Translations under genes and position numbers: made by a program
DNA from: a virus
Taxonomy: Duplodnaviria > Heunggongvirae > Uroviricota > Caudoviricetes
Direction: 5' to 3' (one strand)
DNA: 15,265 bases
Virus record (IMG/VR): IMGVR_UViG_2526164632_000028
Part shown: in pieces, positions 5,928-9,068 of the stretch
Numbering within the stretch: the stretch's first letter is position 1
Layout: each line of letters begins with the position of its first letter
The notes under the pieces: generated by a model
What the model saw: the letters and a program-made list of their open reading frames with translations, nothing else
The model's database searches: none
What the model was told of the DNA's origin: nothing

Positions 5928-6602
5928 TCAGTCTAAGTATTGATGTATTTGTGAAACTTTACCTTTAATGGTGTAACCACCATTCAGTTCGATGGGTTTG
6001 TAAAGCGGATTCAGTGACAACAAATAGATGTTTGGTCCGTCAATCGCAACTTTTTTTAGTGTTACGTTTGGCGTTCCTTCCAATTGGATTAAGATTATTT
6101 TTCCCACCAGTTCTCTAATGTTACTTGAGCATGGTGTGATCAGCACGGTAGATCCGTCGGGGATGGTTGGGAGGCCGTTAGAGTTTGTCATCGCATCTCC
6201 CTCAACATGCAATAAAAAAGAGTTTTCAGCGGTTTTTGTCATGACATCAACCCAGTTATTAATACCAGGAATCTTGGTTACTGGACAACTCATATCCCAA
6301 TAACCAGCCTGTTCCCACGTTAAAACGGGCAACCGGGCGATGTTGTCACTAATGTAAGGGTACTGATTCAGACGCAGATCATCGGTTTTATCGTGACAGT
6401 CCTTTCCATAAAGAATCCATTCAGGAGATTTGGAAAGCAATTTTGACAGTAGATACAAATTCTCACCGTCAGGTTTTGAAGAGCCATTTTCCCATTTTGT
6501 TACGGATACACGAGATATGCCGATTGCTTTCGCAACCTGCTGTTGGGTTAATCCAACGTCTTTTCGACGATTCCGAATACGTTCGCTGATAGTGTTTTTC
6601 AT
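5928..6602 (-). CDS. cI: prophage repressor, P22 C2 / lambda cI type (N-terminal XRE-type HTH, C-terminal S24 LexA-like domain) with Ala at the catalytic Ser position
   Basis: Start taken at ATG 6602 (MKNTISERIRNRRKDVGLTQQQVAKAIGISRVSVTKWENG..., P22 C2-like N-terminus). The tabulated ORF to 6701 begins with TTG and has no RBS. C-terminal domain aligns to the lambda cI S24 region (VEGDAMT vs VEGNSMT; VTLKKV vs FTFKKL). Ala-Gly (QAGY) is present in the linker. Confidence 0.85.
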   Translation of the reverse strand: MKNTISERIRNRRKDVGLTQQQVAKAIGISRVSVTKWENGSSKPDGENLYLLSKLLSKSPEWILYGKDCHDKTDDLRLNQYPYISDNIARLPVLTWEQAGYWDMSCPVTKIPGINNWVDVMTKTAENSFLLHVEGDAMTNSNGLPTIPDGSTVLITPCSSNIRELVGKIILIQLEGTPNVTLKKVAIDGPNIYLLSLNPLYKPIELNGGYTIKGKVSQIHQYLD

Positions 6603-6667
6603 GTAACCAATGTTACTACCAAGTGATGTTGCTATGGTTGACATTGTTATGTAACTATTGTTACCCT
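6603..6667. promoter_or_regulatory. immunity-region operators and divergent promoters (OR/pR/pRM-like)
   Basis: Two palindromes GTAAC-N4-GTTAC at 6603-6616 (abutting the cI start) and 6651-6664. Rightward -35 TTGACA at 6638-6643 with -10 TACCCT near 6662-6667 overlapping the second operator. A leaderless leftward cI transcript with -10 TAACAT (6615-6610) is possible. Confidence 0.45.
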
Positions 6668-6693
6668 TCTGCTCGAAATAACAGGAGAGTTTT

Positions 6694-6908
6694 ATGTTCA
6701 AAGATGATGTTCTGCGCTATTTCAAAAAAAGCGACTAGTAGCTGAGGCTCTTGGAATTTCACATGTGGCTGTTGTGCGGTGGAAAGCAGTTATTCCCAAA
6801 CTTCGCGCAATGGAACTGGATGAAATTACTAACGGTGAATTGAAATACAACCCAGAACTTTACAAGAAGCAGGATAGCACCTCGAACGAAGGAAAGAATG
6901 ATTCATGA
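6694..6908 (+). pseudogene. cro: cro/dicC-like HTH regulator interrupted by a frameshift at an A7 tract
   Basis: ATG 6694 with SD AGGAGAG; reading frame MFKDDVLRYFKKSD stops at 6736-6738. The -1 frame continues (KK)RLVAEALGISHVAVVRWKAVIPKLRAMELDEITNGELKYNPELYKKQDSTSNEGKNDS to TGA at 6906-6908, which overlaps the next gene ATG (ATGA). One extra A in the A7 run (6724-6730) restores a 72-aa Cro/DicC-like protein. Confidence 0.55.
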
Positions 6909-7330
6909 AAATCAAGCATGAACACATCCGCATGGCGATGAATGTCTGGGCGCATCCGGACGGCGAAAAAGTACCGGCTGCGAAAATTACCAAAGCGTAT
7001 TTCGAGCTGGGAATGACGTTCCCGGAACTGTATGACGACAGCCATCCGGAAGCCCTGGCCCGTAATACCCAGAAAATTTTCCGTTGGCTGGATAAAGACA
7101 CCCCTGATGCTGTTGAAAAAATGCAGGCTCTGTTACCGGCGATCGAAAAGGCGATGCCGCCTTTGCTGGTGGCCCGTATGCGCAGCCACAGTTCTGAATA
7201 TTACCGTGAGATCGTCGAACGGAGGGATCGGCTGGTGAAGGATGTCGATGATTTTGTTGCGTCAGCGGTTGTTTTGTATGACCAGATGAATCGCGGCGGC
7301 CCGGCAGGGAATGCTGTGGTGATGCACTAA
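6905..7330 (+). CDS. CII-like / YdaT-family early regulatory protein (putative)
   Basis: 141-aa ORF MKIKHEHIRMAMNVWAHPDGEKVPAAKITKAYFELGMTFPELYDD... in the lambda cII position between cro and the replication genes. N-terminus resembles Rac YdaT as I recall it (unverified). Confidence 0.55.
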   Translation: MKIKHEHIRMAMNVWAHPDGEKVPAAKITKAYFELGMTFPELYDDSHPEALARNTQKIFRWLDKDTPDAVEKMQALLPAIEKAMPPLLVARMRSHSSEYYREIVERRDRLVKDVDDFVASAVVLYDQMNRGGPAGNAVVMH

Positions 7331-7352
7331 AAGCACGGTGTTCGGGGGTTTT

Positions 7353-8315
7353 ATGAGCAGCAAGCTTCATGGTCTTGTCTGGGAAGGGTGCGCCTTCACC
7401 GGCATGATCTTATCCAGGGTGGCGGTTATGGCCCGTCTTGCAGACTACAGCAATGACGAGGGCGTGTCATGGCCTGCCATTGAAACTATCCGGCGTCAGA
7501 TCGGTGCAAGAAGTGAATCCACAGTGAAATCGGCTATTGCAGAACTGGCGAAAGAGGGCTGGCTGACGAAGGAAGAGCGTAAGGTCGGTGGGCGTAATGT
7601 AAGCAATATCTATCGGCTTAATGTGGAAAAACTCGAAGCAGCTGCGGCGGCGGCGCGTGAGTCATATAAACCGAAAAGAAAAATTAGCCCGGCAAAAAAT
7701 GACCCGTTAACAGTTGACCCGTCAAATATTGACCCCTCAACGGTTGACCCGTCAAATTTTGATGGATCAACTGTTGATAAAAAACTGCCGATTAGGGGGG
7801 CGATGATTGACCCCGATCCGTCAGTATTAAAACCTGATCCGTCAGATAAAAGATCTTCTTGTCCGGACGCTTCGCAACCGGACCCGCAGACGGCTGAACA
7901 GGATTTTTTAACCCGACACCCTGACGCGGTTGTGTTCAGTGCGAAAAAACGCCAGTGGGGAAGTCAGGAAGATTTGGTGTGCGCACAGTGGATCTGGGGA
8001 CGAATCGTGAGTCTTTACGAGCAGGCGGCCAGCGATGATGGCGAGATCACTAGACCGAAAGAACCCAACTGGACAGCATGGGCCAATGACGTTCGCACAA
8101 TGCGGATGCTGGATGGCAGAACTCACAGACAAATTTGTGAAATGTTTGGGCGTCTCCAGCGGGATTCGTTCTGGGTAAAAAACATCATGAGTCCGGCAAA
8201 ACTCCGGGAAAAATGGGATGAACTGGTTATCCGCCTGGGGCGTTCGCCTGCGCAGCGTTGCGTGAATCACATTTCTGAACCGGACACTGAAATACCGCCG
8301 GGATTCAGGGGGTGA
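7353..8315 (+). CDS. replication initiator (O-like): N-terminal winged-helix DNA-binding domain, internal iteron-encoded DPxxV repeats, DnaT-like C-terminal domain
   Basis: ATG 7353 with GGGGG SD (tabulated ORF starts at GTG 7338). N-terminal ...SWPAIETIRRQIGARSESTVKSAIAELAKEGWL... C-terminus ...VNHISEPDTEIPPGFRG resembles the E. coli DnaT C-terminus (...SEPDSQIPPGFRG, from memory). Followed immediately by the DnaC-like gene. Confidence 0.8.
   Translation: MSSKLHGLVWEGCAFTGMILSRVAVMARLADYSNDEGVSWPAIETIRRQIGARSESTVKSAIAELAKEGWLTKEERKVGGRNVSNIYRLNVEKLEAAAAAARESYKPKRKISPAKNDPLTVDPSNIDPSTVDPSNFDGSTVDKKLPIRGAMIDPDPSVLKPDPSDKRSSCPDASQPDPQTAEQDFLTRHPDAVVFSAKKRQWGSQEDLVCAQWIWGRIVSLYEQAASDDGEITRPKEPNWTAWANDVRTMRMLDGRTHRQICEMFGRLQRDSFWVKNIMSPAKLREKWDELVIRLGRSPAQRCVNHISEPDTEIPPGFRG
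7699..7785. repeat. iteron array (putative replication origin) inside the initiator gene
   Basis: Six units with exact 15-bp period starting at 7699, 7714, 7729, 7744, 7759 and 7774; core TTGACCCGTCAA is itself palindromic (TTGAC/GTCAA). Followed by A-rich GATAAAAAACTG. Encodes the peptide repeat DPLTV-DPSNI-DPSTV-DPSNF-DGSTV. Confidence 0.6.
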
Positions 8316-8321
8316 CGTGTC

Positions 8322-9068
8322 ATGAAAAACATTGCGGCAGTTGGGGTTCTTGAACGTATTCGCAGACTTGCACCACAGGGGTCGGTTCCACCGTACCGGA
8401 CGGTGGAGGAGTGGCGGGAATGGCAACTTGCTGAAGGACGAAAACGCAGCGAGGAGATTAACCGCCAGAATCGCCAGTTGCGGGTGGAAAAAATCCTGAA
8501 TCGTTCGGGCATCCAGCCTCTGCACAGCAAATGCTCGTTTGCAAATTATCAGGTGCAGAACGACGGGCAAAAATACGCGCTGAGCCAGGCCAAATCCATA
8601 GCTGACGAACTGATGACCGGGTGCACGAATTTTGTGTTCAGCGGTAAAACCGGCACCGGGAAAAATCACCTTGCAGCGGCGATGGGCAACCGGCTGATGG
8701 TGAAGGGGCGCAGCGTGATTATCGTCACCGTGTCTGACGTCATGAGCGTGTTGCATGACAGCTACGACAACGGCAAATCCGGGGAAAAATTTTTACAGGA
8801 GCTTTGCGGGGTTGATTTGCTGGTCCTGGATGAAATAGGCGTTCAGCGGGAGACGAAAAACGAGCAGGTGGTATTGCACCAGATAATTGATCGCCGGACA
8901 GCATCACTGTGCAGTGTCGGGATGTTAACAAACCTGAATCATGCCGCAATGAGTACGCTTCTTGGTGAGAGGATTATGGACCGCATGACCATGAACGGTG
9001 GTCGATGGGTGACGTTTAACTGGGATAGCTGGCGTCCAAATGTCAGCAATATGAGGGTTGTGAAGTAA
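8322..9068 (+). CDS. dnaC: DnaC-like replicative helicase loader (AAA+ ATPase)
   Basis: 248-aa ORF. Walker A FSGKTGTGKNHLAAAMG and Walker B DLLVLDEIGVQ; collinear with E. coli DnaC from N-terminus (MKN...) to C-terminus (...WVTFNWDSWR). Start is 7 nt after the initiator stop. Confidence 0.9.
   Translation: MKNIAAVGVLERIRRLAPQGSVPPYRTVEEWREWQLAEGRKRSEEINRQNRQLRVEKILNRSGIQPLHSKCSFANYQVQNDGQKYALSQAKSIADELMTGCTNFVFSGKTGTGKNHLAAAMGNRLMVKGRSVIIVTVSDVMSVLHDSYDNGKSGEKFLQELCGVDLLVLDEIGVQRETKNEQVVLHQIIDRRTASLCSVGMLTNLNHAAMSTLLGERIMDRMTMNGGRWVTFNWDSWRPNVSNMRVVK

Follow-up and report, generated by a model that had tools for sequence, protein, structure and literature searches.

A tandem array of 15-bp units inside an O-like initiator gene as the probable replication origin of a lambdoid prophage of Escherichia coli

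Does a repeat in the middle of a replication initiator gene serve the protein that it encodes, or does it act as DNA? We addressed this question in a 15,265-nucleotide (nt) stretch of viral DNA (IMG/VR record IMGVR_UViG_2526164632_000028; the whole stretch is called the window here), whose source is a Rac/Qin-type lambdoid prophage of Escherichia coli. Its O-like initiator gene, which encodes a protein of 320 amino acids (aa), contains a tandem array of units repeated every 15 base pairs (bp). A first-pass annotation, made from the letters alone, had described this array as six iterons of exact 15-bp period at 7699-7785. In our judgement it is quite likely that positions 7692-7883 are a prophage replication origin, lying inside the disordered linker (aa 109-174) of its own O-like initiator gene. 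The parts of the gene are as follows.

7353..8315, plus strand: O-like replication initiator gene, 320 aa, with ATG at 7353 and stop codon at 8313-8315 (open reading frame (ORF) list and translation)
7353..7667, plus strand: N-terminal winged-helix DNA-binding domain, aa 1-105 (Pfam HTH_36 at aa 30-76)
7692..7785, no strand: array of six in-phase 15-bp units of five codons each (direct reading, Tandem Repeats Finder (TRF), shuffles)
7800..7814, no strand: isolated degenerate extra unit GCGATGATTGA-CCCC, about 15 bp past the array end
7815..7860, no strand: AT-rich block, candidate DNA-unwinding element (stability, GATC sites, synonymous conservation)
7861..7883, no strand: inverted repeat GTCCGG (7861-7866) / CCGGAC (7878-7883) with an 11-nt spacer (inverted-repeat listing)
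7884..8243, plus strand: C-terminal helical domain, aa 178-297 (BLASTP; AlphaFold predicted local distance difference test (pLDDT) 74-92)
8250..8312, plus strand: disordered C-terminal tail AQRCVNHISEPDTEIPPGFRG (phmmer, NCBIfam)

The repeat can be read directly from the DNA. In the register of the first-pass annotation, its six units start exactly 15 bp apart, at 7699, 7714, 7729, 7744, 7759 and 7774, and read successively aATGACCCGTTAAca, gTTGACCCGTCAAat, aTTGACCCCTCAAcg, gTTGACCCGTCAAat, tTTGATGGATCAAct and gTTGATAAAAAACtg. TRF reports, at 7679-7777, a period of 15 (5 copies) and a period of 30 (3 copies, 80-84% matches). In the best 75-nt segment, 52 positions match at lag 15 and 53 match at lag 30, about 12 standard deviations above 200 dinucleotide-preserving shuffles of the whole window (mean 33.2, standard deviation 1.5, maximum 39). 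Direct reading, TRF and the shuffles all uphold the six units of exact 15-bp period first described within the initiator gene. The heptamer TTGACCC occurs four times in 15.3 kb, always in this region (7714, 7729, 7744 and 7807). The array is in frame within the 320-aa ORF and encodes DPLTV-DPSNI-DPSTV-DPSNF-DGSTV-D.

The units had also been credited with a common, palindromic core. Two units carry exactly TTGACCCGTCAA (7714 and 7744) and four can be called good, but the first and last are degenerate; the remaining cores are ATGACCCGTTAA (7699), TTGACCCCTCAA (7729), TTGATGGATCAA (7759) and TTGATAAAAAAC (7774). The core TTGAC-CC-GTCAA falls short of a true palindrome, its 5+5 arms enclosing an asymmetric centre, and the register TCAAnNnTTGA is equally good or better. 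In TCA-N5-TGA register, units begin at 7692, 7707, 7722, 7737, 7752 and 7767, and 11-bp dyads TCAAnNnTTGA lie at 7707-17, 7722-32, 7737-47, 7752-62 and 7767-77, with 4-bp spacers CCCG, CCCC, CCCG, TGGA and TAAA. Both registers, the 12-mer TTGA-S4-TCAA and the 11-bp odd palindrome, are partial palindromes in each of the two unit classes defined below; the conserved pattern is a train of alternating inverted half-sites (TCAA/TTGA, or TCA/TCTGA), 7 and 8 bp apart.

At the protein level, the array and the AT-rich block correspond to aa 113-177 and overlap the linker at aa 109-174, for which AlphaFold pLDDT values of 30-38 predict disorder; such a linker is free to carry a DNA signal. A pentapeptide-repeat fold (the Pfam PF00805 beta-helix) was considered and set aside: there is no Pfam match, the segment is predicted to be disordered, and the repeat peptide is not conserved in homologues. 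As a separate observation, DnaA-box-like sequences with one mismatch, TTTTCCACA and TTATCAACA, lie at 7622-7630 and 7772-7780 (minus strand), flanking or overlapping the array. DnaA boxes were nevertheless rejected as a part of the origin: the window contains four one-mismatch matches where 3.9 are expected, and the two near the array are not conserved by eye.

The array is a property of the whole protein family. A protein search returned 915 relatives of the initiator, and a comparative set of 80 loci, one per species, was assembled across Enterobacterales; it includes Edwardsiella, Erwinia, Morganella, Providencia, Proteus, Yersinia, Rahnella, Pantoea, Enterobacter, Kluyvera and Shigella and provides 75 usable full or nearly full genes. 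In all 75, the strongest lag is 15 or its multiples 30 and 45 (15 itself in 69), and the array always stands at about nt 270-345 of the gene, directly 3' of the N-terminal domain, with 3-9 consecutive in-phase TCA-N5-TGA units. Arrays were delimited by an in-phase TCA-N5-TGA scan, segmentation by lag-15 score being too fragile for diverged arrays. Close E. coli relatives measure 320, 315, 310 or 305 aa, that is, they differ in steps of 5 aa, and the DNA of three E. coli variants (315, 310 and 305 aa) has lost exactly one, two and three whole units compared with the window. As one unit equals five codons, gain or loss of units keeps the reading frame.

Two classes of unit were found. Class A, with the consensus YCAA-NNN-TTGA-SSSS and a CCCC or GGGG S4 spacer, comprises the window and the Edwardsiella, Erwinia, Mixta, Morganella, Citrobacter and Salmonella variants. 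Class B, with the consensus TCA(A/G)AATCTGAC-NCN and the 11-bp odd palindrome form TCAGAATCTGA, covers the other 66 loci, one of them from a Shigella flexneri prophage; the same array is found in phage SfII.

Codon usage separates constraint on the DNA from constraint on the peptide. Serine codons in the arrays are TCA or TCT in 30/30 cases for class A and 484/509 for class B, compared with 35-40% elsewhere in the same genes (Fisher p = 5e-13 and 8e-126, respectively). Lysine is encoded by AAA in 191 of 193 array positions versus 829 of 1193 elsewhere, asparagine by AAT in 26/31 versus 37/103, and aspartate by GAC in 27/33 versus 54/180. The array peptide, by contrast, varies freely: DP, EG and DG interchange, SKSDA is found versus VDPSN, and the fifth codon of class B specifies A, P, T, G, R or V. 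The class-A site is found in both orientations, ...TTGACCCC... encoding Asp-Pro and the reverse complement ...TTGAGGGG... encoding Glu-Gly, so that CCCC and GGGG spacers represent one site in reverse-complement versions. As the peptide is free and the synonymous sites are constrained, the repeat appears to be a DNA signal in a tolerant linker rather than a conserved peptide repeat; on these codon counts, the constraint on the array falls on the DNA and not on the peptide.

The element does not end at 7785, as had been supposed, but reaches to about 7883, and both unit classes share the isolated unit, the AT-rich block and the inverted repeat 3' of the array. The isolated unit, which holds the last TTGACCC of the window (7807), is conserved in position, with TCAATGGTTGA-CCCC as its counterpart in class-A homologues and TCAGAATCTGG in class B. 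The block contains two GATCCGTCAG repeats (7815-7824 and 7836-7845), ends in AAAAGATCTTCTTG and has three GATC Dam sites, at 7815, 7836 and 7852. The first-pass annotation had placed an A-rich segment after the repeats; what it saw at 7780-7785 is a run of six A's within the last unit, and the true AT-rich block, the least stable 40-bp stretch of the gene, is at 7820-7859. Minimum stability starts 0-19 nt past the first GATCC in 64 of 73 homologues.

DNA-level constraint is equally apparent in this block. GATC density is 34 per kb compared with 3.3 per kb elsewhere, and at least two GATC sites lie within the block in 64 of 72 loci. Asp-Pro is written GATCC in 137 of 137 cases in the block (about 65 of them independent of the anchoring motif) and GACCC in 71 of 71 in the arrays, whereas Asp-Pro elsewhere in the homologues uses GAC 78 times and GAT 14 times. 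Interspecies synonymous-codon identity is 0.86-0.97 in the block, compared with 0.44 and 0.49 in the N-terminal and C-terminal domains, respectively. The block common to both classes reads GATCCGTCAGTAaAA...GATCC(G/A)TCAGATAAAA(GATC)TTCTTGTCCGG (window 7815-7866). The inverted repeat at 7861-7883 recurs as an identical 23-mer in Shigella phage SfII and occupies the position of the right-hand palindrome of ori-lambda, the palindromes of lambda and phi80 standing at the aligned position.

Dam methylase genes are present in the replication module of SfII, phiNP and a Salmonella prophage. Dam-type adenine methylase genes lie one or two genes 3' of the initiator in SfII (locus L091, 2931-3584), phiNP (L092, 2370-3251) and locus L089 (3724-4017). 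These neighbouring phage genes may be related to the invariant GATC cluster.

The presumed reader of the 15-bp units is the N-terminal winged-helix domain. Its AlphaFold model has an H-H-H-H-wing topology with pLDDT 71-89. Foldseek against the PDB returned weak matches to generic MarR/PadR/ArsR-type winged helices (best E-value (E) 2.9e-3), with no specific initiator structure among the PDB matches of the model. The N-terminal domains of class A and class B group separately, and the class of the unit matches the clade of the domain. The class-diagnostic substitutions are L8Y, E11D, R22S, V25I, S54G, A60T, K77R and G80N, several of which fall in the predicted recognition-helix/wing region. A clearly discordant pairing of domain and unit was seen in none of the 75 loci; the divergent class-A-like loci L018 and L023 have mixed arrays. 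DNA similarity to class-B phages begins at about 7815 (77%) and to mEp460-type phages at about 7848 (86.6%), and the C-terminal half is exchanged independently of the N-terminal half. From the aligned loci, the pairing of N-terminal domain and unit class thus appears to hold despite recombination joints directly downstream. In lambdoid initiators, work with lambda/phi80/P22 hybrids established that specificity resides in a single module made up of the N-terminal half and the iterons. The co-variation and the DNA-level constraint in the 75 homologues fit such an initiator/iteron pair.

The C-terminal domain belongs to a familiar family. BLASTP aligns it with lambda O at 39% identity over 119 aa (E 5e-26) and with phi80 gp15 at 36% identity (E 5e-26), and this homology makes the gene an O-family initiator with a different N-terminal module (HTH_36). 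By analogy, the domain would recruit the helicase loader. The linker encoded by the repeats had been said to join a winged-helix domain to a DnaT-like domain. The winged-helix part of that statement stands; the C-terminal domain, however, is lambda-O-like, and DnaT similarity is confined to a 21-residue tail. These last residues, VNHISEPDTEIPPGFRG (aa 300-320), match the PDB DnaT chains 2ru8, 6aep and 9zbt (phmmer E 0.01-0.03). With the NCBIfam DnaT model, for which the cut-off is 201, the score is 16.8 bits and the match is confined to model positions 159-179; we rejected a DnaT-like domain or membership of the DnaT family on account of this restriction to the tail.

The tail is shared with YdaU of the Rac prophage (L002, 4918-4974), with 13 of 19 residues identical and the remainder of the proteins unrelated. 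The gene after the initiator is DnaC-like in the window and likewise in Rac; host dnaT, too, is followed by dnaC. This suggests that the 21-residue tail is a portable DnaC/DnaB-docking peptide. A loader gene is absent altogether from some relatives whose tail is of the ...GFRG type. Side by side, the tail type varies with the partner: an ...IPPGFRG tail occurs with a DnaC-like gene or no loader gene, and an ...EGWRDVL tail has a lambda-P-like gene downstream in the sole such locus examined (L089). The variation of tail and partner fits modular exchange of the loader-recruiting end.

Taken together, the layout points to an origin of the ori-lambda type with a different specificity module, in which the likeness to lambda is partly homology. 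We infer initiator binding, unwinding, loader recruitment and methylation control, in the following sequence. The initiator gene would be transcribed from the early-right operon, and the winged-helix domain of its product would bind the 15-bp units (six in the array and one isolated), in which TCAA and TTGA half-sites alternate in inverted orientation between G/C spacers. The resulting nucleoprotein complex would destabilize the adjoining AT-rich block with its GATC sites (7815-7860). The lambda-O-like domain and the DnaT-like tail would then bring in host DnaB by way of the phage DnaC-like loader. Opening or firing could be modulated by Dam methylation or SeqA, as the invariant GATC cluster suggests.

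Several observations weigh against such an origin. The first and last units of the array are degenerate, leaving four good ones. Half-sites 7-8 bp apart, at 15 bp per site, are unusually tight for winged-helix dimers, and the AT-rich block, which has a G+C content of about 38%, shows moderate instability (96th percentile within the window). Physical linkage, rather than function, could account for part of the co-variation between N-terminal domain and unit class. Some of the codon statistics are circular, as TCA and TGA positions defined the units; we therefore rely on the Lys, Asn and Asp GAC/GAT codons and on the spacers, which are independent of the unit definition. A literature search, which did not cover the SfV genome paper, found no paper on binding or origin activity for this clade.

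Three other explanations compete with a replication origin. The array could be a slippage-prone, low-complexity linker of DPSxx pentapeptides with a function in the protein, such as spacer length or flexibility, the DNA having no role in cis. The segment is indeed predicted to be disordered and is rich in Pro, Ser and Asp, its 15-bp period keeps the frame, and unit number differs among close relatives just as slippage predicts. However, the nucleotides are conserved and the peptide is not (DP, EG and DG replace one another, and class B leaves its middle codon unconstrained). Synonymous codons are near-fixed although the N-terminal domains (aa 1-98) are just 55-78% identical to that of the window. 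Coding need leaves the dyad symmetry of each unit unexplained, and homogenization by slippage fails to account for persistence of the motif in 75 species; a purely peptide-level role therefore strikes us as very unlikely. Still less credit goes to the idea that repeats and block form a recombination joint, a lambdoid 'boundary sequence' kept for exchange of N- and C-terminal modules. Similarity to other phages does begin abruptly within the conserved block, at about 7815 and 7848, and the block is common at the DNA level to otherwise different classes. But a joint needs neither periodic dyads nor class-specific units nor invariant GATC sites, and it falls in the block, not in the array. A common cis function, which happens to supply homology for recombination, accounts better for the conserved block, and we hold the joint to be extremely improbable as the explanation.

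The units might, alternatively, bind protein and be mainly regulatory (autoregulation, a transcriptional roadblock in the early operon, handcuffing for copy control, or sites for another phage or host factor), with the origin elsewhere. Plasmids P1, F and R6K use extra iterons for control, as is well established, and in the E. coli variants units are dispensable down to two or three. In Stx (Shiga toxin) phages, just four of the six iterons are efficiently bound (PMC7466680). What speaks for the origin instead is the DNA directly after the array, where a conserved, least-stable AT-rich block and an inverted repeat can be aligned with the origins of lambda and phi80. Moreover, TRF and a lag scan revealed no other significant array in the replication region, the sole other strong repeat being a 21-bp repeat in the exonuclease gene. 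DnaA boxes are not in excess, and a search of 6600-8400 found no sigma-70 promoter (TTGAC resembles a -35 hexamer) and no terminator. On this evidence, we regard a mainly regulatory array as quite unlikely.

If the element is an origin, its design could differ from that of lambda in more than specificity, and we put this forward tentatively, as a possibility that is more doubtful than not. Sites would be packed at five codons each, and Dam or SeqA would gate the origin at an invariant GATC pair within the unwinding element. Site number (2-9) would evolve by in-frame slippage with the initiator left undamaged. A period of 15 bp is about 1.4 helical turns, which puts neighbouring sites on nearly opposite faces of the helix, and the initiator complex might form a filament, zig-zag or helical, instead of a wrapped O-some as in lambda. 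The Dam methylase genes next to the initiator in SfII, phiNP and the Salmonella prophage fit the idea of methylation gating.

Around the initiator, the window has the following genes.

1-1119, leftward: integrase
leftward: excisionase and 823-aa exonuclease genes
5928-6701, leftward: S24-type repressor
6905-7330, rightward: YdaT/CII-like regulator
8322..9068, plus strand: DnaC-like helicase-loader gene, beginning 7 nt past the initiator stop codon
3' of the DnaC-like loader, rightward: DUF1627, DUF977 and DUF968 genes

The mechanical ORF of the initiator begins upstream, at GTG 7338; the start used here, ATG 7353, is the one that RefSeq gives for the identical locus of E. coli O103:H2. In strain 12009 of that serotype, RefSeq labels the protein merely a 'helix-turn-helix domain-containing protein', and it matches PHROG phrog_391, 'replication initiation O-like', with E 2e-115. 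The loader gene, whose product is the presumed partner of the initiator C-terminus, matches NCBIfam PRK12377 (E 1e-152), DnaC (E 2e-89), Pfam IstB_IS21 and the PHROG 'DnaC-like helicase loader'. Many E. coli chromosomes carry the initiator gene with 100% identity; of 5426 complete E. coli genomes, 1514 contain a match over 80% or more of its length. The family takes in cryptic prophages of the O157:H7 CP-933P type and the Shigella serotype-converting phages SfII and SfIV, which, as isolated phages, carry the same module.

The immunity region is mosaic: the window has the S24 (LexA-like) helix-turn-helix repressor at 5928-6701, whereas an otherwise identical O103:H2 prophage has RacR (L001, 6660-7136), and CP-933P-type relatives (L085) have PaaR2-PaaA2-ParE2 in place of the window's repressor. 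The second strong tandem repeat of the window, at 2277-2360, has a 21-bp period and four copies (consensus TTGTTCCGTTTCTGGCTCGTT, 52 of 75 lag-21 matches); it sits in the exonuclease gene on the minus strand and presumably codes for a heptapeptide repeat. A circular 15,977-bp 'plasmid' record from a dog E. coli, NZ_CP148542.1 (L090), consists solely of the early-right region of this prophage type, from the repressor to the lysis genes, with no plasmid replicon typed. Its ydaT and initiator genes are frameshifted, the initiator inside the GATC block. The record is probably a noisy assembly or artefact, though it may be an excised or amplified fragment. Plasmid records were discarded as evidence of autonomous replication, the matches being prophages in megaplasmids or mislabelled chromosomes, and NZ_CP148542 was not used.

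Although the element is widespread in E. coli, it is unannotated: none of the inspected phage and RefSeq records of this initiator family carries an origin annotation. If true, the origin is a defined cis element for lambda-dv-like plasmids; knowing it helps to read in-situ prophage amplification and read-depth peaks and to predict replication specificity and the incompatibility of co-resident prophages. It also gives a clean natural example of dual coding, a DNA signal being written into a disordered protein linker that is 'free' to take it, and the statistics clearly tell selection on the DNA from selection on the peptide. With the GATC cluster and the neighbouring phage dam genes, methylation control of a phage origin becomes an idea that can be tested. 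The architecture as such is already known, being the textbook lambda layout; what is new is the different DNA-binding module, the in-frame 15-bp iteron period conserved clade-wide, and the cluster of Dam sites in the presumed unwinding element.

Among known systems, the Rac prophage of K-12 (ydaU-ydaV, oriJ) offers the same context, namely racR/ydaS/ydaT, an initiator and the DnaC-like YdaV, with the same DnaT-like tail. Rac is reported to have an active origin, oriJ (PMC3945230). The N-terminal domain of YdaU, however, is DUF1376, and TRF shows just a 6-bp micro-repeat and no 15-bp array; for these two reasons we rejected identity with oriJ/ydaU.

Plasmid iteron origins (P1 oriR, F, R6K, pSC101) and the 13-mers of oriC resemble the element in having tandem initiator sites beside an AT-rich unwinding element. 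In P1 oriR and oriC, this unwinding element has GATC sites whose methylation state controls firing. Plasmid iterons, however, are direct repeats of about 17-22 bp with a helical repeat of about 22 bp, bound by Rep monomers, situated outside the rep gene and dependent on DnaA boxes. A plasmid-type Rep/iteron origin was accordingly rejected for the window, where units measure 15 bp, are dyad-symmetric and lie within the gene, and where DnaA-box-like matches are at chance level.

The closest layout is that of ori-lambda in gene O (also in 434, 21 and Stx phages such as 933W), and the likeness to it that was first proposed is borne out by the linker position, the lambda-O-like C-terminal domain and a block that aligns with the phi80 and lambda origins. 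As in the window, the lambda origin lies mid-gene between the DNA-binding and loader-recruiting domains and comprises several dyad-symmetric sites, an AT-rich region downstream and then an inverted repeat; the annotated iterons of lambda and phi80 occupy the same relative place in the gene as the window array. The block aligns with the right part of ori-lambda, GAAAAGATTATTCGTCAGAG, in a segment AAAAGAT..TTCGTC, except that the GATC cluster of the window has GATT in the aligned lambda segment. Iteron number varies between relatives in lambda-type phages (four in lambda, six in Stx phages; PMC7466680), as it does in the window clade. The differences lie in the specificity module. Annotated lambda iterons are 18 bp and spaced 20, 24 and 23 bp, whereas the sites of the window are 11-12 bp at an exact 15-bp period, shorter than that of lambda as had been stated, and equal to a whole number of codons, unlike that of lambda. 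The N-terminal domain of the window is HTH_36, with no Phage_rep_O match reported and no BLASTP similarity to the lambda O N-terminus; the window does not have a lambda-O-type N-terminal domain with 18-19-bp iterons about two helical turns apart. The loader partner is a DnaC-like AAA+ protein in the window and P in lambda, and the DnaT-like tail is a further difference.

The phi80 origin in gene 15 has the same architecture, and its block CAGTATTAAAAGATCTTCGTCCGAG is the closest DNA match to CAGTATTAAAA...ATAAAAGATCTTCTTGTCCGG of the window, one GATC included. Its four 15-16-bp gp15 sites are spaced 20, 21 and 21 bp and are unrelated in sequence to the window units (GGGAAnAAAATTCCCG type); its N-terminal domain is unrelated to that of the window, and its partner, gp14, is lambda-P-like. 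We rejected gene 15 (source name 'Replication protein 15' on P0112) as a full homologue, the common parts being the C-terminal domain and the AT-rich block only. The O gene of Stx phage vB_EcoP_24B / Min27, finally, encodes a related HTH_36 N-terminal domain (39% identical over aa 22-92) and, as in the window clade, carries a tandem array directly after the winged-helix domain (gene nt ~292-355). This array has a 22-24-bp period, about 2.9 copies and an unrelated G/C-rich unit, GGTGGGGCAGGAGCTGCCCAGG (L093, 1538-1601), and the partner of the protein is a Gp4D-type helicase, unlike the DnaC-like loader of the window. The array probably represents that phage's own unannotated iterons, and its 22-24-bp spacing indicates that the 15-bp period is specific to the clade studied here.

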